A stretch of DNA of 16,764 bases from a virus (lineage: Duplodnaviria; Heunggongvirae; Uroviricota; Caudoviricetes). Below, piece after piece: positions 3 through 16,764 of the stretch (position 1 is the first letter of the stretch; every line of letters starts with the position of its first letter). The position numbers were made by a program, and so were the translations under genes. Location: IMG/VR virus record IMGVR_UViG_2684622772_000002, one strand, 5' to 3'. Under the pieces are notes generated by a model. It was not told where the DNA came from and did not search any database. It saw only the letters and a list, made by a program, of their open reading frames with translations.

Positions 3-212
3 TTATCGCTCGCCACGGGAATATCTGCGGCAGCGGGCTTGTAATGGGTTAAGTGATAACAGATGTCTGGAAATATAGGGGCAAATCCAATCGTCGCCGT
101 ATTCCCGTATTAACAGAGACCGTAGCCCGACGGGGAACTCCTTCTGCGCGAGTGTGCGGGAATAATCAAAAACGATGCACACCGGGGTTACCGGGTACAC
201 ATATTTCATCAT
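3..212 (-). CDS. Hypothetical 69-aa protein, leftmost ORF of the leftward cassette upstream of cos
   Basis: Complete ORF with ATG at 212..210 and TAA stop at 5..3. The product has a mixed hydrophobic/aromatic composition, unlike the Arg-rich overlapping plus-strand ORF 53..256. No clear Shine-Dalgarno and no recognised motif. Confidence 0.3.
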   Translation of the reverse strand: MMKYVYPVTPVCIVFDYSRTLAQKEFPVGLRSLLIREYGDDWICPYISRHLLSLNPLQARCRRYSRGER

Positions 213-257
213 GCCAGCGAGTCCGGTTCTGGCACGGAAGAAACCGGACGTTATGAT

Positions 258-683
258 TTAGTGCGGAAATATTTGTGTAGTGTTCTGTATGTTCTCAGTA
301 AAGAGTAATGAATTATCAAAGGTATAGTAATACCTTTTGTTTTCGTGGATATTTGTAATCCATCTGAAAACCCCTGCTGTAGCAAGATTTTTCCTGTATT
401 CGTAAAATGATAACTCTCCTGATTTGAATCCTTTTAAGGTGGCTTCTATAAGGCATTTATTTTTTGAAAATCTTACATTTACAACCTTACCCTGTCCTTT
501 TATTAAAACCGTATTATCGTTTTCAAGAACAAGATGAATATTCTCTGTGGCTAAATAGTAAATGTAATGTGAGACATTGTGACGTTTTAGTTCAGAATAA
601 AACCAGTGATAGTTTAAATTATTTCGCACTTTATCGAATATTTGTTTAAAAATGGCAACCTGAGCCATTGTAGTACCTTCCAT
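258..683 (-). CDS. Hypothetical protein (141 aa, or 136 aa from the ATG at 668), AT-rich moron gene of unknown function
   Basis: Uninterrupted ORF in a segment that is conspicuously AT-rich by eye compared with the flanking phage DNA. It is antisense to the late operon. An AAGG Shine-Dalgarno-like element precedes the internal ATG at 668. The product is rich in Tyr/Asn/Lys, with no signal peptide and no motif I recognise. Confidence 0.55.
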
Positions 684-725
684 GTGATATGAGGGGGCGT
701 AGTCTGCACGATTATCTAAATTGCT

Positions 726-959
726 TCAATCTGGTCTAACCTGTTTTCTGAGCAATTCAGTAATGTCACTCTTTTCTTTGTTTGCTTCAGGCGAAACTCT
801 TTTTTCTGAGCACAGTCTCCGGCGGCAGGCTTCAATGACCCAGGCTGAGAAATTCCCGGACCCTTTTTGAACAAGAGCGATGTTAATTTGTTCAATCATT
901 TGGTTAGGAAAGCGGATGTTGCGGGTTGTTGTTCTGCGGGTTCTGTTCTTCGTTGACAT
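726..959 (-). CDS. Small ribbon-helix-helix-like protein (77 aa), resembling the YlcI/YnfO (DUF3950) proteins found next to terminase genes in E. coli lambdoid prophages
   Basis: ORF with ATG at 959..957. The Arg/Thr-rich basic N-terminus (MSTKNRTRRTTTRNIRFPNQ) followed by a predicted helix (MIEQINIALVQKGSGNFSAWVIEACRRRL) fits a beta-strand-helix-helix DNA-binding fold. The family assignment is from memory, not a search. Confidence 0.55.
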   Translation of the reverse strand: MSTKNRTRRTTTRNIRFPNQMIEQINIALVQKGSGNFSAWVIEACRRRLCSEKRVSPEANKEKSDITELLRKQVRPD

Positions 960-999
960 GAGGTTGCCCTGTATTCAGTGTCGCTGATTTGTATTGTCT

Positions 1000-1347
1000 G
1001 AAGTTGTTTTTACGTTAAGTTGATGCAGATCAATTAATACGATACCTGCGTCATAATTGATTATTTGACGTGGTTTGATGGCGTAGATGCACGTTGTGAC
1101 ATGTAGATGATAATTATTATCATTTTGCGGGTCCTTTCCGGCGATCCGACAGGTTACGGGGCGGAAGGCGCGCGGGTTTTCGCTATTTATGACAATTTTC
1201 CGGTTTAAGGCGTTTCCGTTCTTCTTCGCCGTAACCTAATGTTTTTATTTAAAACACCCCCTGAAAAGAAAGGAAACGACAGGTGCTGAAAACGGGCTTT
1301 TTGGCCTCTGTCGTTTCCTTTCTCTGTTTTTGTCCGTGGAATGAACA
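1000..1347 (+). promoter_or_regulatory. cos: cos region (cosQ-cosN-cosB), the DNA packaging and terminase recognition site
   Basis: Sequence 1000..1158 closely matches what I recall of the lambda right end (...GATCCGACAGGTTACG), and 1171..1347 matches the lambda left end (CGCGGGTTTTCGCTATTTATGA...), directly upstream of nu1. Exact boundaries of cosQ and the R/I1 elements are not resolved. Confidence 0.85.
1159..1170 (+). other. cosN: cosN 12-nt cohesive-end core, here GGGCGGAAGGCG
   Basis: Positioned between the conserved ...AGGTTACG and CGCGGGTTTTCGC... flanks. Lambda has GGGCGGCGACCT here; the window differs in the last 6 nt (see findings). Confidence 0.6.
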
Positions 1348-1867
1348 ATGGAAGTCAACAAAAAGCAGCTGGCTGACATTTTCGGTGCGAGTATCCGTAC
1401 CATTCAGAACTGGCAGGAACAGGGAATGCCCGTTCTGCGAGGCGGTGGCAAGGGTAATGAGGTGCTTTATGACTCTGCCGCCGTTATAAGATGGTATGCC
1501 GAAAGGGATGCTGAAATTGAGAACGAAAAGCTGCGCCGGGAAGTTGAAGAACTGCGGCAGGCCAGCGAGACAGATCTCCAGCCAGGGACTATTGAGTACG
1601 AACGCCATCGACTTACGCGTGCGCAGGCCGACGCACAGGAGCTGAAAAATGCCAGAGACTCCGCTGAAGTGGTGGAAACCGCATTCTGTACTTTCGTGCT
1701 GTCGCGGATCGCAGGTGAAATTGCCAGTATTCTCGACGGGATCCCCCTGTCGGTGCAGCGGCGTTTTCCGGAACTGGAAAACCGACATGTTGATTTCCTG
1801 AAACGGGATATCATCAAAGCCATGAACAAAGCAGCCGCGCTGGATGAACTGATACCGGGGTTGCTGA

Positions 1868-1893
<26 letters not shown>
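1348..1893 (+). CDS. nu1: Terminase small subunit (181 aa)
   Basis: Near-identical to lambda Nu1 (MEVNKKQLADIFGASIRTIQNWQEQGMPVLRGGGKGNEVLYDS...), same length, and its 3' end overlaps A as in lambda. Confidence 0.96.
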
Positions 1894-5574
<3,681 letters not shown>

Positions 5575-5594
<20 letters not shown>

Positions 5595-6894
5595 TCTCCC
5601 GCATATTGCCAGCATGGCTTTTAATGAGCCGCTGATGCTTGAACCCGCCTATGCGCGGGTTTTCTTTTGTGCGCTTGCAGGCCAGCTTGGGATCAGCTGC
5701 CTGACGGATGCAGTATCCGGCGACAGCCTGACTGCCGGAGAGGCACCCGCGGCGCTGGCGTTATCCGGTGATGATGACGGACCACGACAGGCCCGCAGTT
5801 ATCAGGTAATGAACGGCATCGCCGTGCTGCCGGTGTCCGGCACGCTGGTCAGCCGGACGCGGGCGCTGCAGCCGTACTCGGGGATGACCGGTTACAACGG
5901 CATTATCGCCCGTCTGCAACAGGCTGCCAGCGACCCGATGGTGGACGGCATTCTGCTCGATATGGACACACCGGGCGGAATGGTGGCGGGAGCATTTGAC
6001 TGCGCTGACATCATCGCCCGTGTGCGTGACATAAAGCCGGTATGGGCGCTGGCCAATGACATGAACTGCAGCGCAGGTCAGCTGCTTGCCAGTGCCGCCT
6101 CCCGGCGTCTGGTCACGCAGACCGCCCGGACAGGCTCCATCGGCGTCATGATGGCTCACAGTAATTACGGCGCTGCACTGGAGAAACAGGGCGTGGAAAT
6201 CACGCTGATTTACAGCGGCAGCCATAAGGTGGATGGCAACCCCTACAGCCATCTACCGGATGATGTCCGGGAAACATTGCAGTCCCGGATGGATGCAACC
6301 CGCCGGATGTTTGCACAGAAGGTGTCGGCATATACCGGCCTGTCCGTGCAGGCTGTGCTGGATACCGAGGCTGCAGTGTACAGCGGTCAGGAGGCCATTG
6401 ATGCCGGACTGGCTGATGAACTTGTTAACAGTACCGATGCGATCACCGTCATGCGTGATGCACTGGATGCACGTAAATCCCGTCTCTCAGGAGGGCGAAT
6501 GACCAAAGAGACTCAATCAACAACTGTTTCAGCCACTGCTTCGCAGGCTGACGTTACTGGCGTGGTGCAAGCGACGGAGGGCGAGAACGCCAGCGCGGCG
6601 CAGCCGGACGTGAACGCGCAGATCACCGCAGCGGTTGCGGCAGAAAACAGTCGCATTATGGGGATCCTCAACTGTGAGGAGGCTCACGGACGCGAAGAAC
6701 AGGCACGCGTGCTGGCCGAAACCCCCGGTATGACCGTGGAAACGGCCCGCCGTATTCTGGCCGCAGCACCACAGAGTGCACAGACGCGCAGTGACACTGC
6801 GCTGGATCGTCTGATGCAGGGGGCACCGGCACCGCTGGCTGCAGGTAACCCGGCATCTGATGCCGTTAACGATTTGCTGAACACACCAGTGTAA
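5575..6894 (+). CDS. C: Head maturation protease / scaffold fusion (439 aa) with GTG start
   Basis: From the GTG at 5575 the product (TAELRNLPHIASMAFNEPLMLEPAYARVFFCALAGQLGIS...) matches lambda gpC at 439 aa. A strong Shine-Dalgarno (AGGAGGAG at 5562..5569) sits just upstream. The track ORF from 5440 is an in-frame upstream extension. Confidence 0.92.
6289..6894 (+). CDS. nu3: Scaffolding protein, nested in-frame in the 3' part of C
   Basis: Internal ATG at 6289 in the C frame gives MDATRRMFAQKVSAYTGLSVQAVLDTEA..., which is the lambda Nu3 arrangement (same stop as C). Confidence 0.85.
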   Translation: MDATRRMFAQKVSAYTGLSVQAVLDTEAAVYSGQEAIDAGLADELVNSTDAITVMRDALDARKSRLSGGRMTKETQSTTVSATASQADVTGVVQATEGENASAAQPDVNAQITAAVAAENSRIMGILNCEEAHGREEQARVLAETPGMTVETARRILAAAPQSAQTRSDTALDRLMQGAPAPLAAGNPASDAVNDLLNTPV

Positions 6895-6903
6895 GGGATG
6901 TTT

Positions 6904-7236
6904 ATGACGAGCAAAGAAACCTTTACCCATTACCAGCCGCTGGGCAATAGTGACCCGGCTCATACCGCAACCGCGCCCGGCGGATTGAGTGCGAAAGCGC
7001 CTGCAATGACCCCGCTGATGCTGGACACCTCCACCCGTAAGCTGGTTGCGTGGGATGGCACCACCGACGGTGCTGCCGTTGGCATTCTTGCGGTTGCTGC
7101 TGACCAGACCAGCACCACACTGACGTTCTACAAGTCCGGCACGTTCCGTTATGAGGATGTGCTCTGGCCGGAGGCTGCCAGCGACGAGACGAAAAAACGG
7201 ACCGTGTTTGCCGGAACGGCAATCAGCATCGTTTAA
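6904..7236 (+). CDS. D: Head decoration protein (110 aa)
   Basis: [27 protein letters not shown]... matches lambda gpD. The ATG at 6904 is 6 nt after an AGGGA Shine-Dalgarno; the track's ATG at 6898 adds two residues absent from lambda D. Confidence 0.95.
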
Positions 7237-7291
7237 CTTTACCCTTCATCACTAAAGGCCGCCTGTGTGGCTTTTTTTACGGGATTTTTTT

Positions 7292-8317
7292 ATGTCGATG
7301 TACACAACCGCCCAGCTGCTGGCGGCAAATGAGCAGAAATTTAAGTTTGATCCGCTGTTTCTGCGTCTCTTTTTCCGTGAGAGCTATCCCTTCACTACGG
7401 AGAAAGTCTATCTCTCACAAATTCCGGGACTGGTAAACATGGCGCTGTACGTTTCGCCGATTGTTTCCGGTGAGGTTATCCGTTCCCGTGGCGGCTCCAC
7501 CTCTGAATTTACGCCGGGATATGTCAAACCCAAGCATGAGGTGAATCCGCAGATGACCCTGCGTCGCCTGCCGGATGAAGATCCGCAGAATCTGGCGGAC
7601 CCGGCTTACCGCCGCCGTCGCATCATCATGCAGAACATGCGTGACGAAGAGCTGGCCATTGCTCAGGTCGAAGAGATGCAGGCAGTTTCTGCCGTGCTCA
7701 AGGGCAAATACACCATGACCGGTGAAGCCTTCGATCCGGTTGAGGTGGATATGGGCCGCAGTGCGGCGAACAACATCACACAGTCCGGCGTCACGGAGTG
7801 GAGCAAGCGTGACAAGTCCACGTATGACCCGACCGACGATATCGAAGCCTACGCGCTGAACGCCAGCGGTGTGGTGAATATCATCGTGTTTGACCCGAAA
7901 GGCTGGGCGCTGTTCCGTTCCTTCAAAGCCGTCAAGGAGAAGCTGGATACCCGTCGCGGCTCTCATTCCGAGCTGGAGACAGCGGTAAAAGACCTGGGCA
8001 AAGCGGTGTCCTATAAGGGAATGTATGGCGATGTGGCCATCGTCGTGTATTCCGGACAGTACGTGGAAAACGGCGTCAAAAAGAACTTCCTGCCGGACAA
8101 CACGATGGTGCTGGGGAACACTCAGGCTCGCGGTCTGCGCACCTATGGCTGCATTCAGGATGCGGACGCACAGCGCGAAGGCATTAACGCTTCTGCCCGT
8201 TACCCGAAAAACTGGGTGACCACCGGCGATCCGGCGCGTGAGTTCACCATGATTCAGTCAGCACCGCTGATGCTGCTGGCTGATCCTGATGAGTTCGTGT
8301 CCGTTCAACTGGCGTAA
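7292..8317 (+). CDS. E: Major capsid protein (341 aa)
   Basis: From the ATG at 7292, MSMYTTAQLLAANEQKFKFDPLFLRLFFRESYPFTTEKVYLSQIPGLVNMALYVSPIVSGEV... is near-identical to lambda gpE and the same length. The track start at 7265 is an upstream extension. Confidence 0.96.
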   Translation: MSMYTTAQLLAANEQKFKFDPLFLRLFFRESYPFTTEKVYLSQIPGLVNMALYVSPIVSGEVIRSRGGSTSEFTPGYVKPKHEVNPQMTLRRLPDEDPQNLADPAYRRRRIIMQNMRDEELAIAQVEEMQAVSAVLKGKYTMTGEAFDPVEVDMGRSAANNITQSGVTEWSKRDKSTYDPTDDIEAYALNASGVVNIIVFDPKGWALFRSFKAVKEKLDTRRGSHSELETAVKDLGKAVSYKGMYGDVAIVVYSGQYVENGVKKNFLPDNTMVLGNTQARGLRTYGCIQDADAQREGINASARYPKNWVTTGDPAREFTMIQSAPLMLLADPDEFVSVQLA

Positions 8318-8358
8318 TCATGGCCCTTCGGGGCCATTTTCTCTCTGTGGAGGAGTTC

Positions 8359-8757
8359 ATGACGAAAGATGAACTGATTGCCCGTCTTCAGGAGCTGGGT
8401 GAGCAATTGAACCGCGATGTCAGTTTGACGGGAACGAAAGAAGAACTGGCGCTTCGTGTGGCAGAGCTGGAAGAAGAGCTTGATGACACGGATGAAACTG
8501 CCGGTCAGGACACCCCTCTCAGCCGGGAAAATGTGCTGACCGGGCATGAAAATGAGGTGGTATCAGCGCAGCCGGATACCGTGATTCAGGATACGGCTGA
8601 ACTGGTCACGGTCGTGGCACTGGTGACGCTGCATACTGATGCACTTCACGCCACGCGGGATAAACCTGTGGCATTTGTGCTGCCGGGAACGGCGTTTCGT
8701 GTCTCTGCCGGTGTGGCAGCCGAAATGACAGAGCGCGGCCTGGCCAGAATGCAATAA
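8359..8757 (+). CDS. FI: Head assembly / DNA-packaging accessory protein (132 aa)
   Basis: From the ATG at 8359, MTKDELIARLQELGEQLNRDVSLTGTKEELALRVAELEEELDDTDETAGQDTPLSRENVL... matches lambda gpFI in length and sequence. The track start at 8320 is an extension. Confidence 0.93.
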   Translation: MTKDELIARLQELGEQLNRDVSLTGTKEELALRVAELEEELDDTDETAGQDTPLSRENVLTGHENEVVSAQPDTVIQDTAELVTVVALVTLHTDALHATRDKPVAFVLPGTAFRVSAGVAAEMTERGLARMQ

Positions 8758-8768
8758 CGGGAGGCGCT

Positions 8769-9122
8769 GTGGCTGATTTCGATAACCTGTTCGATGCTGC
8801 CATTGCCCGCGCCGATGAAACGATACGCGGGTACATGGGAACGTCAGCCACCATGACATCCGGTGAGCAGTCAGGTGCGGTGATACGTGGTGTTTTTGAT
8901 GACCCTGAAAATATCAGCTATGCCGGACAGGGCGTGCGCGTTGAAGGCTCCAGCCCGTCCCTGTTTGTCCGGACTGATGAGGTGCGGCAGCTGCGGCGTG
9001 GAGACACGCTGACCATCGGTGAGGAAAATTTCTGGGTAGATCGGGTTTCGCCGGATGATGGCGGAAGTTGTCATCTCTGGCTTGGACGGGGCGTACCGCC
9101 TGCCGTTAACCGTCGCCGCTGA
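8769..9122 (+). CDS. FII: Head-tail connector / head completion protein (117 aa)
   Basis: Same length and sequence pattern as lambda gpFII (MADFDNLFDAAIARADETIRGYMGTSAT...). Confidence 0.94.
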   Translation: MADFDNLFDAAIARADETIRGYMGTSATMTSGEQSGAVIRGVFDDPENISYAGQGVRVEGSSPSLFVRTDEVRQLRRGDTLTIGEENFWVDRVSPDDGGSCHLWLGRGVPPAVNRRR

Positions 9123-9133
9123 AAGGGGGATGT

Positions 9134-9712
9134 ATGGCCATAAAAGGTCTTGAGCAGGCCGTTGAAAACCTCAGCCGTATCAGCAAAACGGCGGTGCCCG
9201 GTGCCGCCGCAATGGCCATTAACCGCGTTGCTTCATCCGCGATATCGCAGTCTGCGTCACAGGTTGCCCGTGAGACAAAGGTACGCCGGAAACTGGTAAA
9301 GGAAAGGGCCAGGCTGAAAAGGGCCACGGTCAAAAATCCGCAGGCCAGAATCAAAGTTAACCGGGGGGATTTGCCCGTAATCAAGCTGGGTAATGCGCGG
9401 GTTGTCCTGTCCCGCCGCAGGCGTCATAAAAAGGGGCAGCGTTCATCCCTGAAAGGTGGCGGCAGCGTGCTTGTGGTGGGTAACCGTCGTATTCCCGGCG
9501 CGTTTATTCAGCAACTGAAAAACGGCCGGTGGCATGTTATGCAGCGTGTGGCCGGGAAAAACCGTTACCCCATTGATGTGGTGAAAATCCCGATGGCGGT
9601 GCCGCTGACCACGGCGTTTAAACAGAATATTGAACGGATACGGCGTGAACGTCTTCCGAAAGAGCTGGGCTATGCGCTGCAGCATCAACTGAGAATGGTA
9701 ATAAAGCGATGA
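9134..9712 (+). CDS. Z: Tail completion protein (192 aa)
   Basis: Same length and position as lambda gpZ (MAIKGLEQAVENLSRISKTAVPGAAAMAINRVASSAISQ...). Overlaps the U start by 4 nt. Confidence 0.94.
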   Translation: MAIKGLEQAVENLSRISKTAVPGAAAMAINRVASSAISQSASQVARETKVRRKLVKERARLKRATVKNPQARIKVNRGDLPVIKLGNARVVLSRRRRHKKGQRSSLKGGGSVLVVGNRRIPGAFIQQLKNGRWHVMQRVAGKNRYPIDVVKIPMAVPLTTAFKQNIERIRRERLPKELGYALQHQLRMVIKR

Positions 9713-10104
9713 AACATACTGAACTCCGTGCAGCCGTACTGGATGCACTGGAGAAGCATGACACCGGGGCGACGCTTTTTGATGGTCGCCCCGCTGTTTT
9801 TGATGAGGAAGATTTTCCGGCAATTGCCGTTTATCTCACCGGCGCTGAATACACGGGCGAAGAGCTGGACAGCGATACCTGGCAGGCGGAGCTGCATATT
9901 GAAGTTTTCCTGCCTGCTCAGGTGCCGGATTCAGAGCTGGATTCGTGGATGGAGTCCCGGATTTATCCTGTGATGAGCGATATCCCGGCACTGTCAGATT
10001 TGATCACCAGTATGGTGGCCAGCGGCTATGACTACCGGCGCGACGATGATGCGGGCCTGTGGAGTTCAGCCGATCTGACTTATGTCATTATCTATGAAAT
10101 GTGA
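9709..10104 (+). CDS. U: Tail terminator protein (131 aa)
   Basis: Same length and position as lambda gpU ([52 protein letters not shown]...). Confidence 0.94.
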
Positions 10105-10111
10105 GGACGCT

Positions 10112-10852
10112 ATGCCTGTACCAAATCCTACAATGCCGGTGAAAGGTGCCGGGACCACCCTGTGGGTTTATAAGGGGAGCGGTGACCCTTATGCGAACCC
10201 GCTTTCAGACGTTGACTGGTCGCGTCTGGCAAAAGTTAAAGACCTGACGCCCGGCGAACTGACCGCTGAGTCCTATGACGACAGCTATCTCGATGATGAA
10301 GATGCAGACTGGACTGCGACCGGGCAGGGGCAGAAATCTGCCGGAGATACCAGCTTCACGCTGGCGTGGATGCCCGGAGAGCAGGGGCAGCAGGCGCTGC
10401 TGGCGTGGTTTAATGAAGGTGATACCCGTGCCTATAAAATCCGCTTCCCGAACGGCACGGTCGATGTGTTCCGTGGCTGGGTCAGCAGTATCGGTAAGGC
10501 GGTGACGGCGAAGGAGGTGATTACCCGCACGGTGAAGGTCACCAATGTGGGACGTCCGTCGATGGCAGAAGATCGCAGCACGGTGACGGCGACGACCGGC
10601 ATGACGGTGACACCCGCCAGTGCTTCCGTAGTGAAAGGGCAGAGCACCACGCTGACCGTGGCATTCCAGCCGGATGGCGCAACCGACAAGAGCTTCCGTG
10701 CGGTGTCTGCGGATAAAACAAAAGCCACCGTGTCGGTCAGTGGTATGACCATCACCGTGAAAGGTGTTGCTGCAGGCAAGGTCAACATTCCGGTCGTATC
10801 TGGTAATGGTGAGTTTGCTGCGGTTGCAGAAATCAACGTCACCGCCAGTTAA
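10112..10852 (+). CDS. V: Major tail tube protein (246 aa)
   Basis: From the ATG at 10112, [57 protein letters not shown]... matches lambda gpV at 246 aa. The track start at 10082 is an extension. Confidence 0.95.
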
Positions 10853-10867
10853 TCCGGAGAGTCAGCG

Positions 10868-11290
10868 ATGTTCCTGAAAACCGAATCATTTGAACATAAC
10901 GGTGTGACCGTCACGCTTTCTGAACTGTCAGCCCTGCAGCGTATTGAGCATCTCGACCTGATGAAACGGCAGGCAGAACAGGCGGAGTCAGACAGCAACC
11001 GGAAGTTTACTGTGGAAGACGCCATCAGAACCGGCGCTTTTGTGGTTGCGATGTCCCTGTGGCATAACCATCCGAAGAAGACGCAGATGCCGTCCATGAA
11101 TGAAGCCGTTAAACAGATTGAGCAGGAAGTGCTTACCACCTGGCCCACAGAGGCAATTTCTCATGCTGAAAACGTGGTGTACCGGCTGTCCGGTATGTAT
11201 GAGTTTGTGGTGAATGATGCTCCTGAACAGGCAGAGGACGCCGGGCCTGCAGAGCCTGTTTCTGCGGGAAAGTGTTCGACGGTGAGCTGA
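10868..11290 (+). CDS. G: Tail assembly chaperone G (140 aa)
   Basis: Same length and sequence as lambda gpG (MFLKTESFEHNGVTVTLSELSALQRIEHLDLMKRQAEQAESDSNRKF...), ending ...SAGKCSTVS. Confidence 0.94.
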   Translation: MFLKTESFEHNGVTVTLSELSALQRIEHLDLMKRQAEQAESDSNRKFTVEDAIRTGAFVVAMSLWHNHPKKTQMPSMNEAVKQIEQEVLTTWPTEAISHAENVVYRLSGMYEFVVNDAPEQAEDAGPAEPVSAGKCSTVS

Positions 11291-11706
11291 GTTTTGCCCT
11301 GAAACTGGCGCGTGAGATGGGGCGACCCGACTGGCGCGCCATGCTTGCCGGGATGTCATCCACGGAGTATGCCGACTGGCACCGCTTTTACAGTACCCAT
11401 TATTTTCATGATGTTCTGCTGGATATGCACTTTTCCGGGCTGACGTACACCGTGCTCAGCCTGTTTTTCAGCGATCCGGAGATGCATCCGCTGGATTTCA
11501 GTCTGCTGAACCGGCGCGAGGCTGACGAAGAGCCTGAAGATGATGTGCTGATGCAGAAAGCGGCAGGGCTTGCCGGAGGTGTCCGCTTTGGCCCGGACGG
11601 GAATGAAGTTATCCCCGCTTCCCCGGATGTGGCGGACATGACGGAGGATGACGTAATGCTGATGACAGTATCAGAAGGGATCGCAGGAGGAGTCCGGTAT
11701 GGCTGA
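10868..11706 (+). CDS. G-T: Tail assembly chaperone G-T fusion made by programmed -1 ribosomal frameshift
   Basis: The G GGA AAG slippery heptamer at 11266..11272 sits near the end of G. The -1 frame from 11266 reads GKVFDGELSFALKLAREMGRPDWRAMLAGMSSTEYADWHRF..., matching lambda gpT, which has no start codon of its own, and runs to the stop at 11706. Confidence 0.9.
11266..11272 (+). promoter_or_regulatory. Slippery heptanucleotide GGGAAAG for the G-T -1 frameshift
   Basis: An X XXY YYZ heptamer in the G frame (gcG GGA AAG) exactly where the T reading frame opens. Confidence 0.88.
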
Positions 11707-14260
11707 ACCGGTAGGCGATCTGGTCGTTGATTTGAGTCTGGATGCGGCCAGATTTGACGAGCAGATGGCCAGAGTCAGGCGTCATTTTTCCGGTACGGAA
11801 AGTGATGCGAAAAAAACAGCGGCAGTCGTTGAACAGTCGCTGAGCCGACAGGCGCTGGCTGCACAGAAAGCGGGGATTTCCGTCGGGCAGTATAAAGCCG
11901 CCATGCGTATGCTGCCTGCACAGTTCACCGACGTGGCCACGCAGCTTGCAGGGGGGCAGAATCCCTGGCTGATCCTGCTGCAACAGGGTGGTCAGGTTAA
12001 GGACTCCTTCGGCGGGATGATCCCCATGTTCAGGGGGCTTGCCGGCGCGATCACCCTGCCGATGGTGGGGGCCACCTCGCTGGCGGTGGCGACCGGTGCG
12101 CTGGCGTATGCCTGGTATCAGGGCAACTCAACCCTGTCCGATTTCAACAAAACGCTGGTCCTTTCCGGTAATCAGGCGGGACTGACGGCAGATCGTATGC
12201 TGGTCCTGTCCAGAGCCGGGCAGGCGGCAGGGCTGACGTTTAACCAGACCAGCGAGTCACTCAGCGCACTGGTTAAGGCGGGGGTAAGCGGTGAGGCTCA
12301 GATTGCGTCCATCAGCCAGAGTGTGGCGCGTTTCTCCTATGCATCCGGCGTGGAGGTGGACAAGGTCGCTGAAGCCTTCGGGAAGCTGACCACAGACCCG
12401 ACGTCGGGGCTGACGGCGATGGCACGCCAGTTCCATAACGTGACGGCGGAGCAGATTGCGTATGTTGCTCAGTTGCAGCGTTCCGGCGATGAAGCCGGGG
12501 CATTGCAGGCGGCGAACGAGGCCGCAACGAAAGGGTTTGATGACCAGACCCGCCGCCTGAAAGAGAACATGGGCACGCTGGAGACCTGGGCAGACAGGAC
12601 TGCACGTGCATTCAAATCCATGTGGGATGCGGTGCTGGATATTGGTCGTCCTGATACCGCGCAGGAGATGCTGATTAAGGCAGAGGCTGCGTTTAAGAAA
12701 GCAGACGACATCTGGAATCTGCGCAAGGATGATTATTTCGTTAACGATGAAGCACGGGCGCGTTACTGGGATGATCGTGAAAAAAAACGCCTGGAGCGGG
12801 ATGCAGCCCAAAAGAGGGTAGATCAACAGCGTCAACAGGACAAAAATGCGCAGCAGCAGAGCGATACCGAAGCGTCACGGCTGAAATATACCGAAGAGGC
12901 GCAGAAGGCTTACGAACGGCTGCAGACGCCGCTGGAGAAATATACCGCCCGTCAGGAAGAACTGAACAAGGCACTGAAAGACGGAAAAATCCTGCAGGCA
13001 GATTACAACACGCTGATGGCGGCGGCGAAAAAGGATTATGAAGCGACGCTGAAAAAGCCGAAACAGTCCGGCGTGAAGGTGTATGCGGGCGATCGTCAGG
13101 AAGACAGTGCTCATGCGGCCCTGCTGACGCTTCAGGCAGAACTCCGGACGCTGGAGAAGCATGCCGGAGCGAATGAGAAAATCAGCCAGCAGCGCCGGGA
13201 TTTGTGGAAGGCAGAAAGTCAGTTCGCGGTACTGGAGGAGGCGGCACAACGTCGCCAGCTGTCCGCACAGGAGAAATCCCTGCTGGCGCATAAAGACGAG
13301 ACGCTGGAGTACAAACGCCAGCTGGCTGCACTTGGTGACAAGGTTACGTATCAGGAGCACCTGAATGCGCTGGCGCAGCAGGCGGATAAATTCGCACAGC
13401 AGCAACGGGCAAAACGGGCAGCCATTGATGCGAAAAACCGGGGGCTGACTGACCGGCAGGCAGCGCGGGAAGCCACGGAACAGCGCCTGAAGGAACAGTA
13501 TGGCGATAATCCTCTGGCGCTGAATAACGTCATGTCAGAGCAGAAAAAGACCTGGGCGGCTGAAGACCAGCTTCGCGGGAGCTGGATGGCAGGCCTGAAG
13601 TCCGGCTGGAGTGAGTGGGAAGAGAGCGCCACGGACAGTATGTCACAGGTTAAAAGTGCAGCCACGCAGACCTTTGATGGTATTGCACAGAATATGGCGG
13701 CGATGCTGACCGGCAGTGAACAGAACTGGCGCAGCTTCACCCGCTCCGTGCTGTCCATGATGACAGAAATTCTGCTTAAGCAGGCAATGGTGGGGATTGT
13801 CGGGAGTATCGGCAGCGCCATTGGCGGGGCTGTTGGTGGCGGCGCATCCGCGTCAGGTGGTACAGCCATTCAGGCCGCTGCGGTGAAATTCCATTTTGCA
13901 ACCGGGGGATTTACGGGAACCGGCGGCAAATATGAGCCAGCGGGGATTGTTCACCGTGGTGAATTTGTCTTCACGAAGGAGGCAACCAGCCGGATTGGCG
14001 TGGGGAATCTCTACCGGCTGATGCGCGGCTATGCGGAAGGTGGTTATGTGGGCGGTGCCGGAAGTCCGGCGCAGATGCGGCGGGCTGAAGGCATTAATTT
14101 TAATCAGAACAATCACGTGGTGATTCAGAACGACGGTACGAATGGTCTGCCAGGTCCACAGATGATGAAGGCCGTGTATGACATGGCCCGCAAGGGTGCC
14201 CGTGATGAAATTCAGACACAGATGCGTGATGGTGGCCTGTTCTCCGGAGGTGGACGATGA
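11699..14260 (+). CDS. H: Tail tape measure protein (853 aa)
   Basis: Same length as lambda gpH, with matching N-terminus (MAEPVGDLVVDLSLDAARFDEQMARVRRHFSGTESDAKKTAAVVEQ...) and Gly-rich C-terminal region. Start overlaps the T stop. Confidence 0.96.
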   Translation: MAEPVGDLVVDLSLDAARFDEQMARVRRHFSGTESDAKKTAAVVEQSLSRQALAAQKAGISVGQYKAAMRMLPAQFTDVATQLAGGQNPWLILLQQGGQVKDSFGGMIPMFRGLAGAITLPMVGATSLAVATGALAYAWYQGNSTLSDFNKTLVLSGNQAGLTADRMLVLSRAGQAAGLTFNQTSESLSALVKAGVSGEAQIASISQSVARFSYASGVEVDKVAEAFGKLTTDPTSGLTAMARQFHNVTAEQIAYVAQLQRSGDEAGALQAANEAATKGFDDQTRRLKENMGTLETWADRTARAFKSMWDAVLDIGRPDTAQEMLIKAEAAFKKADDIWNLRKDDYFVNDEARARYWDDREKKRLERDAAQKRVDQQRQQDKNAQQQSDTEASRLKYTEEAQKAYERLQTPLEKYTARQEELNKALKDGKILQADYNTLMAAAKKDYEATLKKPKQSGVKVYAGDRQEDSAHAALLTLQAELRTLEKHAGANEKISQQRRDLWKAESQFAVLEEAAQRRQLSAQEKSLLAHKDETLEYKRQLAALGDKVTYQEHLNALAQQADKFAQQQRAKRAAIDAKNRGLTDRQAAREATEQRLKEQYGDNPLALNNVMSEQKKTWAAEDQLRGSWMAGLKSGWSEWEESATDSMSQVKSAATQTFDGIAQNMAAMLTGSEQNWRSFTRSVLSMMTEILLKQAMVGIVGSIGSAIGGAVGGGASASGGTAIQAAAVKFHFATGGFTGTGGKYEPAGIVHRGEFVFTKEATSRIGVGNLYRLMRGYAEGGYVGGAGSPAQMRRAEGINFNQNNHVVIQNDGTNGLPGPQMMKAVYDMARKGARDEIQTQMRDGGLFSGGGR

Positions 14261-14586
14261 AAACCTTCCGCTGGAAAGTGAAACCCGGTATGGATGTGGC
14301 TTCGGCCCCTTCTGTAAGAAAGGTGCGCTTTGGTGATGGCTATTCCCAGCGAGCGCCTGCCGGGCTGAATGCCAACCTGAAAACGTACAGCGTGACGCTT
14401 TCTGTCCCCCGTGAGGAGGCCATGGTACTGGAGTCGTTTCTGGAAGAGCACGGGGGCTGGAAAGCCTTTCTGTGGACGCCGCCTTATGAGTGGCGGCAGA
14501 TAAAGGTGACCTGCGCAAAATGGTCGTCGCGGGTCAGTATGCTGCGTGTTGAGTTCAGCGCAGAGTTTGAACAGGTGGTGAACTGA
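14257..14586 (+). CDS. M: Tail tip assembly protein (109 aa)
   Basis: Same length and position as lambda gpM (MKTFRWKVKPGMDVASAPSVRKVRFGDGYSQRAPAGLNANLKTYSVTLSVPREE...). Overlaps the H stop and the L start. Confidence 0.94.
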   Translation: MKTFRWKVKPGMDVASAPSVRKVRFGDGYSQRAPAGLNANLKTYSVTLSVPREEAMVLESFLEEHGGWKAFLWTPPYEWRQIKVTCAKWSSRVSMLRVEFSAEFEQVVN

Positions 14587-15171
14587 TGCAGGATATCCGG
14601 CAGGAAACACTGAATGAATGCACCCGTGCGGAGCAGTCGGCCAGCGTGGTGCTCTGGGAAATCGATCTGACAGAGGTCGGTGGAGAACGTTATTTTTTCT
14701 GTAATGAGCAGAACGAAAAAGGTGAGCCGGTCACCTGGCAGGGGCGACAGTATCAGCCGTATCCCATTCAGGGGAGTGGTTTTGAACTGAATGGCAAAGG
14801 CACCAGTACGCGCCCCACGCTGATGGTTTCTAACCTGTACGGTATGGTCACCGGGATGGCGGAAGATCTACAGAGTCTGGTCGGCGGAACGGTGGTCCGG
14901 CGTAAGGTTTACGCCCGTTTTCTGGATGCGGTGAACTTCGTCAACGGAAACAGTGACGCCGATCCGGAGCAGGAGGTGATCAGCCGCTGGCGCATTGAGC
15001 AGTGCAGCGAACTGAGCGCGGTGAGTGCCTCTTTTGTACTGTCCACGCCGACGGAAACAGATGGCGCTGTTTTTCCGGGACGTATCATGCTGGCCAACAC
15101 CTGCACCTGGACCTATCGCGGCGATGAGTGCGGTTATCACGGTCCGGCGGTCGCGGATGAATATGACCAGC
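14586..15171 (+). CDS. L: Tail tip assembly protein L, 3' end lost in the assembly gap
   Basis: MQDIRQETLNECTRAEQSASVVLWEIDLTEVGGERYFFCNEQNEKGEPVTWQGRQYQPYPIQGSGFELNGKG... matches lambda gpL for 195 residues up to ...GPAVADEYDQ, then runs into the N-run. About 37 codons are missing. Confidence 0.9.
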
Positions 15172-15455
15172 NNNNNNNNNNNNNNNNNNNNNNNNNNNNN
15201 NNNNNNNNNNNNNNNNNNNNNNNNNNNNNNNNNNNNNNNNNNNNNNNNNNNNNNNNNNNNNNNNNNNNNNNNNNNNNNNNNNNNNNNNNNNNNNNNNNNN
15301 NNNNNNNNNNNNNNNNNNNNNNNNNNNNNNNNNNNNNNNNNNNNNNNNNNNNNNNNNNNNNNNNNNNNNNNNNNNNNNNNNNNNNNNNNNNNNNNNNNNN
15401 NNNNNNNNNNNNNNNNNNNNNNNNNNNNNNNNNNNNNNNNNNNNNNNNNNNNNNN
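15172..15455. other. Assembly gap: run of 284 N
   Basis: Contiguous N characters in the sequence. They replace the end of L, the L-K spacer and the start of K. Confidence 0.99.
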
Positions 15456-16073
15456 CCGGAGGCGTATTTCCGTATGTCGCCGGAAGACTGGCTGCAGGCA
15501 GAGATGCAGGGTGAGATTGTGGCACTGGTCCACAGCCACCCCGGTGGTCTGCCCTGGCTGAGTGAGGCCGACCGGCGGCTGCAGGTGCAGAGTGATTTGC
15601 CGTGGTGGCTGGTCTGCCGGGGGGCGATTCACAAGTTCCGCTGTGTGCCACATCTTACCGGGCGGCGCTTTGAGCACGGGGTGACGGACTGTTACACGCT
15701 GTTCCGGGATGCTTACCATCTGGCGGGGATTGAGATGCCGGATTTTCATCGTGAGGATGACTGGTGGCGTCACGGTCAGAATCTCTATCTGGATAATCTG
15801 GAGGCCACAGGGCTGTATCAGGTGCCGTTGTCAGCGGCGCAGCCGGGCGATGTGCTGCTGTGCTGTTTTGGTTCATCGGTGCCGAATCATGCCGCCATTT
15901 ACTGTGGTGACGGCGAGCTGCTGCACCATATTCCTGAACAACTGAGCAAACGAGAGAGGTATACCGACAAATGGCAGCGACGCACACACTCCCTCTGGCG
16001 TCACCGGGCATGGCACGCATCTGCCTTTACGGGGATTTGCAACGATTTGGCCGCCGCATCGACCTTCGTGTGA
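15456..16073 (+). CDS. K: Tail tip protein K with JAMM/MPN and NlpC/P60-like motifs, 5' end lost in the gap
   Basis: ...SPEDWLQAEMQGEIVALVHSHPGGLPWLSEADRRLQVQSDLPWWLVCRG... matches lambda gpK from about residue 50 to its C-terminus. The HSH-x7-S-x2-D JAMM metalloprotease motif is present, and a Cys/His-containing region (VTDCYTLFRDAYH...) follows. Confidence 0.9.
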   Translation, partial: PEAYFRMSPEDWLQAEMQGEIVALVHSHPGGLPWLSEADRRLQVQSDLPWWLVCRGAIHKFRCVPHLTGRRFEHGVTDCYTLFRDAYHLAGIEMPDFHREDDWWRHGQNLYLDNLEATGLYQVPLSAAQPGDVLLCCFGSSVPNHAAIYCGDGELLHHIPEQLSKRERYTDKWQRRTHSLWRHRAWHASAFTGICNDLAAASTFV

Positions 16074-16642
16074 AAACGGGTGCCGAAGCCATCCGGGCGA
16101 TGGCCACACAGCTCCCTGCGTTTCGTCAGAAGCTGAGCGACGGCTGGTATCAGGTGCGTATTGCCGGGCAGGATGTTAGCACGTCCGGATTAACGGCACA
16201 GTTACATGAGGCTCTGCCTGACGGCGCTGTGATTCATATTGTTCCCAGAGTCGCCGGGGCCAAGTCAGGTGGTGTATTCCAGATTGTCCTGGGAGCAGCC
16301 GCCATTGCCGGATCATTCTTTACCGCCGGAGCCACCCTTGCAGCATGGGGGGCTGCCATTGGTGCCGGTGGTATGACCGGCATTCTGTTTTCTCTCGGTG
16401 CCAGTATGGTGCTCGGCGGTGTGGCTCAGATGCTGGCACCGAAAGCCAGAACTCCCCGCACACAGACAACGGATAACGGTAAGCAGAACACCTATTTCTC
16501 CTCACTGGATAACATGGTTGCCCAGGGCAATGTTATGCCTGTTCTGTATGGTGAAATGCGCGTGGGGTCACGTGTGGTATCTCAGGAGATCAGCACGGCA
16601 GACGAAGGGGACGGTGGTCAGGTTGTGGTGATTGGTCGCTGA
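15971..16642 (+). CDS. I: Tail tip assembly protein (223 aa)
   Basis: Same length as lambda gpI (MAATHTLPLASPGMARICLYGDLQRFGRRIDLRVKTGAEAIRAMATQLPAFRQKL...). It overlaps the end of K by 103 nt in another frame, as in lambda. Confidence 0.94.
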   Translation: MAATHTLPLASPGMARICLYGDLQRFGRRIDLRVKTGAEAIRAMATQLPAFRQKLSDGWYQVRIAGQDVSTSGLTAQLHEALPDGAVIHIVPRVAGAKSGGVFQIVLGAAAIAGSFFTAGATLAAWGAAIGAGGMTGILFSLGASMVLGGVAQMLAPKARTPRTQTTDNGKQNTYFSSLDNMVAQGNVMPVLYGEMRVGSRVVSQEISTADEGDGGQVVVIGR

Positions 16643-16702
16643 TGCAAAATGTTTTATGTGAAATCGCCTCCGGGCGGTTTTATCGTTTATGGAGCATGAC
16701 GA

Positions 16703-16764
16703 ATGGGTAAAGGCAGCAGTAAGGGGCATACCCCGCGCGAAGCGAAGGACAACCTGAAGTCCAC
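16703..16764 (+). CDS. J: Tail tip central fibre / host specificity protein J, first 20 codons only (truncated by the window end)
   Basis: The ATG at 16703, preceded by GGAG at 16691..16694, opens MGKGSSKGHTPREAKDNLKS, the N-terminus of lambda gpJ. Not in the ORF track because it runs off the window. Confidence 0.85.
   Translation, partial: MGKGSSKGHTPREAKDNLKS

Follow-up and report, generated by a model that had tools for sequence, protein, structure and literature searches.

Which gene is read against the late operon in the AT-rich stretch ahead of cos, and what could it do for the virus or its host? The window, i.e., the whole analysed stretch of 16,764 nucleotides, is a lambda-like late region in which Nu1, the large terminase and then the portal, head and tail ORFs all lie on the plus strand. 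The ORF list of the window also holds a minus-strand ORF at 258..683 (141 codons plus stop), which exists just as a sequence-only reading of the same DNA had described it. The following features are relevant for its interpretation:

89..257, minus strand: 3' flank of the DUF1398 gene, common to lambda and DLP12 (blastn boundaries).
258..668, minus strand: coding sequence of the DUF1398 gene (136 aa, stop at 258-260), orthologous to lambda lambdap78 and to ybcV and ydfO of K-12.
669..683, minus strand: five additional in-frame codons (MEGTT), probably 5' UTR, with the Shine-Dalgarno-like GGAAGG at 681..676 inside.
684..745, minus strand: conserved 5' region that moves with the gene; palindrome, then TTGAAG-N17-CAGACT.
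726..959, minus strand: DUF3950/YlcI-YnfO family protein of 77 aa (Pfam PF13132, E 2e-20; NCBIfam YlcI_YnfO_N).
1159..1170, plus strand: cosN cohesive-end sequence in the variant form GGGCGGAAGGCG, from the alignment with the cos regions of lambda, DLP12 and PhiR49_1.
1348..1893, plus strand: small terminase Nu1, with which the late genes after cos begin; 98% aa identity to Nu1 of lambda and phage 434.
1868..3793, plus strand: large terminase (ORF list).

The sharp AT-richness relative to the phage backbone, which the sequence-only reading had stated without percentages, can be put into numbers: the coding sequence has a G+C content of 31.4% (GC3 30.7%) versus 55.9% for positions 1348-16764, where the late genes lie. 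Transcription against the late operon, also claimed there, is borne out as well, with the ORF on the minus strand and antisense to the plus-strand genes Nu1 and large terminase. Pairwise dN/dS values among the alleles of the window, Qin, DLP12 and lambda range from 0.12 to 0.35 and thus indicate that purifying selection acts on a protein gene. Of 5426 complete E. coli genomes, 2717 carry a close DNA copy, and in 2709 the copy covers at least 80% of the gene. That the AT-rich antisense ORF is a genuine protein gene is confirmed.

The true start of the gene is probably the ATG at 668, since in lambda and DLP12 a 1-nt indel puts the upstream ATG (683) into another frame, while the ATG at 668 is conserved and preceded at a distance of 7 nt by the GGAAGG motif. 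Beside this, ATGGAAGGT is invariant across the aligned upstream regions, and RefSeq gives a length of 136 aa for both ybcV and ydfO of K-12. The earlier length of 141 aa thus most likely has to be shortened to 136 aa, while the peptide quoted along with it already was that of the 136-aa product (MAQVAIF...).

The identity of the ORF is secure: it represents, as the local allele, the DUF1398 family, to which lambdap78 of lambda as well as YbcV, YdfO and YcgX of E. coli also belong. Its product matches the Pfam profile DUF1398 (PF07166) at full length (profile positions 1-119/119) with 147 bits versus a cut-off of 22 bits (E 3e-43), and phmmer relates the ORF to PDB entry 2HH8, i.e., E. coli YdfO, with an E-value of 1.4e-69. 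On the protein level, it is 100% identical to the respective gene of the phages PhiR49_1, Kati, Chlobot and ev099 and 76% identical to lambda lambdap78 (ORF 47048-47452). The allele of phage Tritos is 71% identical. The same position and orientation are seen in the annotated regions of lambda (where the gene adjoins bor), DLP12 (ybcV) and Qin (ydfO), and PGAP routinely assigns the name 'DUF1398 domain-containing protein'. That is, the gene is already known, both as a member of a catalogued family and as a lambda gene, while the biochemical role of the family is uncharacterised. The sequence-only reading had taken the ORF for the one unassigned gene of the window; this does not hold, since the ORF belongs to DUF1398/YbcV/YdfO/lambdap78, for which a structure has been solved, and since the adjacent DUF3950 ORF has no function assigned either. 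On the other hand, the statement that no function can be recognised agrees with the membership in an uncharacterised family. The profile search proposed in that reading, with a confident match to a characterised family as the outcome to speak against it, returned a match that is confident and a family that is not characterised.

To place this allele among its relatives, we consider both close and remote members. A phmmer search against 1.84 billion representatives gives 196 matches with E<=1e-3, mostly enterobacterial, while more remote DUF1398 members were reached via alignments and not by single-sequence phmmer. Identities of 44-48% are found for ycgX of E. coli and Shigella and of 34-39% for genes of Kluyvera, Klebsiella, Raoultella, Salmonella and Pseudocitrobacter; furthermore, there is a flavobacterial branch (Epilithonimonas, Chryseobacterium). 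Near the distant paralogs that were examined, no lambda-type Nu1, terminase, lysis or DUF3950 genes were found. Their neighbours vary, namely the bluR/bluF region at the e14 edge (ycgX), a sopE2-like effector with a PrpA-like phosphatase remnant, a P2-like prophage end, an integrase edge, an umuDC island and GGDEF plus Csp genes. The Epilithonimonas members lie in a housekeeping-gene neighbourhood, and the Pseudocitrobacter-type branch carries an N-terminal hydrophobic stretch and is always located 3' of an aryl-polyene-like cluster. What the distant paralogs have in common is that they stand alone, mostly within mobile or island DNA, and that no partner is conserved.

Among phages, 43 records hold a lambda-type DUF1398 gene versus about 88 with a close Nu1. 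The slot, i.e., the order of lysis genes, antisense DUF1398 and cos, is occupied likewise in five related elements; in a Stx-like prophage, for instance, the order is Rz, antisense DUF1398, Nu1. Location directly beside cos, as stated earlier, has to be relaxed to location within the lysis-to-cos slot, given that cosN (1159-1170) is about 475 nt away with the DUF3950 ORF in between. The likeness to the arrangement of lambda bor stands, as bor lies in this very slot and the lambda ortholog adjoins it. A comparison of the slot among related prophages, also suggested by the sequence-only reading, gives a divided picture. Different cargo is indeed present, i.e., bor in lambda and DLP12, KilA-N plus small ORFs in PhiR49_1, and cspI, ynfN and gnsB in Qin. 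DUF1398, however, is no arbitrary insert but the recurring slot member nearest to cos. An Rfam scan of positions 1-1400 yields nothing but miRNA noise, located at the inverted repeat of cosB.

The flanks of the gene are informative with regard to how its alleles are distributed. About 170 nt downstream of the gene are shared with lambda. In the Stx-like prophage, the flanks are 88-90% identical to those of the window (90% for positions 90-201), while its DUF1398 allele (P0274, 177 aa) shows a protein identity of only about 24%. The slot thus acts like a cassette site with conserved flanks. A hairpin about 10 nt past the stop codon (roughly 217-243) has no T-run and is not better than shuffles (z -1.3), and the terminator scan yields no intrinsic terminator downstream on the minus strand. 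Of the traits that mark bor-like morons, the locus hence shows a distinct base composition and insertion between conserved modules, but no intrinsic terminator of its own.

Upstream, about 80 nt of sequence are conserved and accompany the DUF1398 gene into unrelated contexts; a recognisable version of the same leader is retained by ycgX and by the Citrobacter alleles. The homology between Qin-type and lambda-type loci begins exactly at a palindrome, GGT(C/T)AGACC, that sits 73-74 nt before the start codon and that forms the 3' end of ynfO in Qin-type loci but is intergenic in lambda-type loci. In the window, the palindrome reads ATCTGGTCTAACCTGTT at 729-745 on the plus strand, i.e., GGTTAGACC on the strand of the gene, and the pattern occurs once versus 0 occurrences expected from shuffles. 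Its centre is located about 8 nt upstream of a -35-like hexamer, which is part of TTGAA(G/A/T)-N17-CANACT. The position of the latter is fixed in six aligned alleles, while its match to the sigma-70 consensus is weak, with a -10 element of only 3/6. The promoter scan additionally provides TAGACC-16-GATAAT (738->711), which is a weak consensus match, too. We also considered a structured leader or riboswitch within the conserved 5' region, which was discarded given an RNAalifold energy of -2 kcal/mol and no covariation.

For the K-12 alleles, which reside in cryptic prophages, one study combining genomic SELEX and RT-qPCR reported a PdhR box for ybcV/ybcW and for ynfO/ydfO, which is the same palindrome box, along with a 10-fold lower ybcV mRNA level in a pdhR mutant (PMC7660256). 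The box matches 10/14 consensus positions, and a PdhR-type box is absent upstream of more distant alleles. Since the conserved 5' control region begins inside the 3' end of ynfO, the DUF1398 gene presumably has a promoter of its own. Taken with this sequence comparison, the K-12 data lend indirect support to both an own promoter and expression in the prophage state.

The product has a mass of 16 kDa and a pI of 9.4, within a family range from 4.5 to 10. A single-sequence AlphaFold model was unusable (pLDDT 51) and was replaced by a model based on an alignment of 29 sequences down to about 20% identity, which reaches a pLDDT of 89. The latter reproduces the fold of the sole solved member 2HH8, i.e., the YdfO fold of two tandem alpha-alpha-beta-beta-beta (helix-helix-strand-strand-strand) repeats, for which the fold search revealed no other significant structural relative. 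The sole family-wide conserved patch is the motif AxxGVF(K/R)W...Y of the second repeat. Its residues A96, G99, W103 and Y114 are invariant or nearly so from Enterobacteriaceae to Flavobacteriia and all are present in the window protein. In accordance with the sequence-only reading, neither a transmembrane nor a signal segment was detected (highest 19-residue Kyte-Doolittle mean 0.39). The search for a catalytic motif likewise came out as stated there, and no second Pfam family recurs among the 29 members. Nor is there a DNA-binding signature common to the whole DUF1398 family. A Pfam match to HEPN_AbiA_CTD (E 0.014) for the 141-aa version was dismissed as chance; it is gone for the 136-aa protein and does not recur among the 29 members. 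For NCBIfam, only sub-threshold anthranilate-synthase noise is reported.

DUF1398 is mentioned in five papers and ybcV or ydfO in 41; those consulted contain entries in gene lists, regulation data and strain constructions, and none is a functional study. ydfO is induced by the ionic liquid [C2mim]Cl, by 12-fold (microarray) to 117-fold (qPCR) (PMC4077768), and its expression is changed on DicC induction, while ybcV is up in a sabinene-adapted strain. Furthermore, ybcV is among 86 ASKA clones with overexpression-altered glycogen, where it is listed in the glycogen-deficient table by COG category (PMC2853380); this is a phenotype in host physiology. An in-silico survey considered no inference possible for ycgX. 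Two further reports were set aside: the oxidative-stress resistance from YdfO overexpression that is quoted in PMC4077768 goes back to PMC3105296, a paper on YfdO of CPS-53 in which ydfO does not occur, and the 'ydfO' of a motility-interactome paper is an unrelated B. subtilis gene.

Given these observations, we lean, with little more than even confidence, towards the following reading. The DUF1398 gene would be a self-contained accessory unit of the moron type that is transcribed independently of the late operon and whose product acts as a soluble, non-enzymatic binding protein on host physiology. From the comparison of loci, the unit appears to consist of the upstream control region of about 80 nt, the coding sequence and the 3' flank of about 170 nt, with alleles exchanged between conserved flanks. 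Several other explanations compete with this reading.

First, the product might be an anti-phage or superinfection-exclusion factor that is expressed in the lysogen, similar to RexAB or SieB. Position, antisense orientation and AT-richness do resemble known prophage defence and moron loci, and the family is scattered over prophage ends and islands. The slot is also active in phage-host conflict: the Vulcan NADase defence senses the lambda neighbour lambdap79, which is absent from the window, as its activator (bioRxiv 10.64898/2026.09.04.749371). On the other hand, no model of PADLOC-DB v2 was matched significantly, with Csx23 as the best match (E 0.025, 12.6 bits), so that the anti-phage role, which the sequence-only reading had offered as a hypothesis, gains no evidence from this search. 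The protein shows no effector-type domain (nuclease, NADase, pore or protease), no partner is conserved beside this single small protein, and the flavobacterial members reside in housekeeping neighbourhoods. Moreover, a full-text search for DUF1398, ybcV, ydfO, ycgX and lambdap78 gave neither a defence study nor a defence phenotype. We consider an anti-phage factor unlikely.

A counter-defence or host-takeover protein, which would neutralise a host factor by binding it in the course of infection, not in the lysogen, is a quite improbable explanation. A small and soluble protein with an orphan fold and no catalytic motif is typical of phage inhibitors, and the gene is dispensable on a laboratory host in which most defences are missing. 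But the gene runs antisense where the late transcript passes and has no early promoter in its vicinity, cryptic prophages, which have lost infectivity, keep functional-looking copies subject to purifying selection, and solitary chromosomal paralogs are found in non-phage settings.

The upstream same-strand neighbour, i.e., the DUF3950 ORF (726..959), raises the question whether both genes form a toxin-antitoxin-like pair with the YnfO-like protein as antitoxin or repressor. The latter is small and basic (pI 10.9) with a tail, lies about 57 nt from the DUF1398 start (counted to 668), and the same pair is present in Qin. Both ORFs are in frame with only one TGA, the stop of the DUF3950 ORF, between them, and 233-aa read-through fusions of DUF3950 and DUF1398 exist in the database (P0013, 761 member sequences). 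We nevertheless reject the pair as very improbable, because the two genes are not always neighbours: lambda and DLP12 have the opposite-strand gene p79/ybcW between the DUF3950 and DUF1398 genes. Beside all distant paralogs that were examined, DUF3950 is absent. The DUF1398 control region starts within the 3' end of ynfO, which indicates an own promoter. Moreover, ybcV-overexpressing clones could be recovered and scored in the ASKA glycogen screen (PMC2853380), a Keio ybcV::kan mutant exists and is routinely used (PMC3945230), and the orphan fold has no similarity to any toxin family. The DUF3950 ORF is context and not a demonstrated partner of the DUF1398 gene.

Finally, the labels 'head protein' (PHROG 413, E 1e-89; likewise NC_001416 and several records) and 'putative envelope protein' (older GenBank and COG) suggest a virion or lytic-cycle component, and the constant place next to cos would suit a packaging helper. 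The proteins that make up the lambda head (E, D, B, the C-derived X1/X2, W and FII) have long been known, and to our knowledge the DUF1398 protein is not among them. Both labels appear to be propagated annotations, with that of PHROG 413 as the sole support for a structural class, and such a role is extremely unlikely for a gene that is on the strand opposite to the head genes and opposed by late transcription, whose product has no signal peptide or membrane segment and no structural similarity to capsid, portal or decoration proteins, whose allele variation does not follow that of Nu1 and cos (76% aa identity versus 98% for Nu1), and whose CRISPRi knock-down as lambdap78 leaves lambda plating normal (EOP 1.9 and 1.3; PMC10695390).

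We thus return to the accessory unit of the moron type. Both the unit itself and its activity in the prophage state are based on sequence comparison and the literature on the orthologs. Its transcription, independent of the late operon, would start from a weak sigma-70 promoter. The GntR-type palindrome about 8 nt upstream of the -35 element has a position that would suit an activator, for which PdhR, a pyruvate sensor, is the binder reported in K-12; here, positional conservation and the one SELEX/RT-qPCR study are the basis. Given promoter and PdhR-type palindrome, we propose that expression in the lysogen follows the metabolic or stress state of the host. On the other hand, the classical set of lysogen-expressed lambda genes, as PMC7067206 summarises it, is limited to cI, rexAB, lom and bor. 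Late in lytic growth, the DUF1398 gene would be opposed by the converging pR' transcript. Since no catalytic motif, membrane segment or family-wide DNA-binding signature was found and the second-repeat motif is the sole conserved patch, the protein would most likely act by stoichiometric binding to a host component and thereby alter host physiology, without a role in virion building, lysis or DNA packaging. The term 'binding protein' is deduced from an orphan fold that shows no catalytic features.

A more specific version is tentative and, in our view, rather doubtful: DUF1398 might represent a new class of lysogenic-conversion factor, in which a prophage-borne binding protein of orphan fold, activated by PdhR or a different GntR-type regulator at the GGTNAGACC operator, would adjust the central carbon or glycogen metabolism or the envelope-stress tolerance of the lysogen. 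If true, this would explain why the gene is under purifying selection next to cos in half of the E. coli genomes and in lambda; if the PdhR-linked role were shown, the lambda paradigm would gain a conversion gene that depends on metabolic state. The gene as such is no novelty: PGAP annotates it routinely, lambda carries it, E. coli K-12 has three copies, and a PDB structure has been available since 2006. It rather shows that even the best-studied phage retains a gene that is conserved and under selection, with an orphan fold and no assigned function, for which the widely propagated labels 'head protein' and 'envelope protein' are unsupported.

With regard to named systems, YcgX and the solitary chromosomal DUF1398 genes share Pfam family, length and the AxxGVF(K/R)W...Y motif with the window gene, and ycgX keeps a recognisable version of its upstream region. 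In contrast to the window gene, the chromosomal genes show identities of only 15-48%, are not located beside cos or terminase and reside mostly in island-like contexts.

The closest overall arrangement is that of ynfO-ydfO in Qin (YdfO being PDB 2HH8), i.e., a 77-aa DUF3950 gene, a short spacer and a 136-aa DUF1398 gene, both antisense to a Nu1 homolog beside cos, with 90% nucleotide identity over window positions 220-1400. Yet the protein alleles differ (dN 0.14, dS 0.67), and Qin is a decayed cryptic prophage, whereas the window holds an apparently complete late operon. lambdap78 of lambda and YbcV of DLP12 are orthologous and use the same slot and orientation, sharing the 5' region from the palindrome on as well as the 3' flank. 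In contrast to the window, which has neither bor nor p79 in the available sequence, both carry bor downstream and an extra opposite-strand gene, lambdap79/ybcW, before a shortened DUF3950 gene (ylcI, 64 aa).

Finally, the gene resembles the lambda morons bor and lom in being small, of deviating composition, orientated against or independent of the late operon, dispensable for phage growth and located in the region from lysis genes to cos. While Bor and Lom carry signal sequences, belong to the outer-membrane proteins or lipoproteins and have a known phenotype in serum resistance or adhesion, the DUF1398 product is predicted to be cytoplasmic.

The DUF1398 gene of the window is closely followed, on its downstream side, by a conserved segment of about 110 nt, i.e., window positions 90-201 are 90% identical to positions 6498-6609 of the locus L008 from a Stx-like prophage, and the flank on the cos side (window 1106-1203) is 88% identical in the same prophage. 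Despite the 90%-identical flank, the DUF1398 allele of L008 shares just ~24% protein identity with that of the window. Because the flanks are 88-90% identical yet the enclosed allele only ~24%, the comparison of these sequences suggests a cassette-like exchange of DUF1398 alleles between conserved linkers. For Stx1a phages, only the downstream flank and a C-terminal DUF1398 fragment seem to be left as a remnant.

The cohesive end itself, GGGCGGAAGGCG (12 nt, 1159-1170), differs at 5 positions from GGGCGGCGACCT, which is shared by lambda, DLP12 and phage PhiR49_1; the flanking cosQ and cosB are ~97% identical to those of the same three elements. The variant is a genuine cos type rather than a sequencing error, because its exact form is found again, together with the flanks, in 14 IMG/VR viral contigs.

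Two further observations concern the surroundings of DUF1398 genes:
6001-6468 or 6001-6447 (loci L005, L006, L007, L011): divergent DUF1398 gene
3-212, minus strand (window): putative 69-aa ORF at the left edge, where the sequence ends
The divergent genes, from Pseudocitrobacter and a related JGI genome, always follow an aryl-polyene-like biosynthetic cluster (MMPL, DUF3261, ketosynthases, ApeP-like, reductase, ACPS), and their other flank is variable; the proteins of the Pseudocitrobacter copies show an N-terminal hydrophobic segment. The 69-aa ORF partially matches PHROG 20197 (category 'unknown function'; E 2e-10) over the C-terminal end of that family, and PhiR49_1 is annotated with a small hypothetical gene at about its position.

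With regard to function, PHROG 413 and the re-annotated RefSeq records of phages, lambda (NC_001416) among them, give the family the label 'head protein'; older records and JGI call it 'putative envelope protein', and COG 'phage envelope protein'. None of the results of this analysis speaks for the head or the envelope label. The published claim of an oxidative-stress role of YdfO is a YdfO/YfdO name mix-up: PMC4077768 states that YdfO overexpression raises oxidative-stress resistance and cites PMC3105296, which deals with the CPS-53 prophage proteins YfdK, YfdO and YfdS and nowhere mentions ydfO. The DUF1398 gene of record MW057783.1, titled Campylobacter phage CJLB-4 (48361 nt), is identical to that of lambda and lies at similar coordinates (46968-47372); the record is most likely a lambda sequence under a wrong name or a contamination.

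The neighbouring gene, which always adjoins cos in lambda-type elements, and the region to be compared with it are:
726-959, minus strand (window): 77-aa DUF3950 ORF (YlcI/YnfO family), separated from the DUF1398 ORF by the spacer 684-725
2153-2767 (lambda locus L001) and 4174-4784 (DLP12 locus L003): insertion region, versus window 746-797
The DUF3950 protein is basic (pI 10.9), and the TGA that ends its ORF shares the reading frame of the DUF1398 ORF, with no further stop in between (window 684-725). A TGA to TGG change yields in P0013, which represents 761 member sequences of the protein collection, a 233-aa read-through fusion with both Pfam domains (DUF3950 and DUF1398). The insertion of ~600 nt in lambda and DLP12 carries lambdap79/ybcW on the opposite strand and cuts the DUF3950 gene to 64 aa. 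According to bioRxiv 10.64898/2026.09.04.749371, it is lambdap79 that activates the Vulcan NADase defence system, so phages with the window's layout would be without this trigger.
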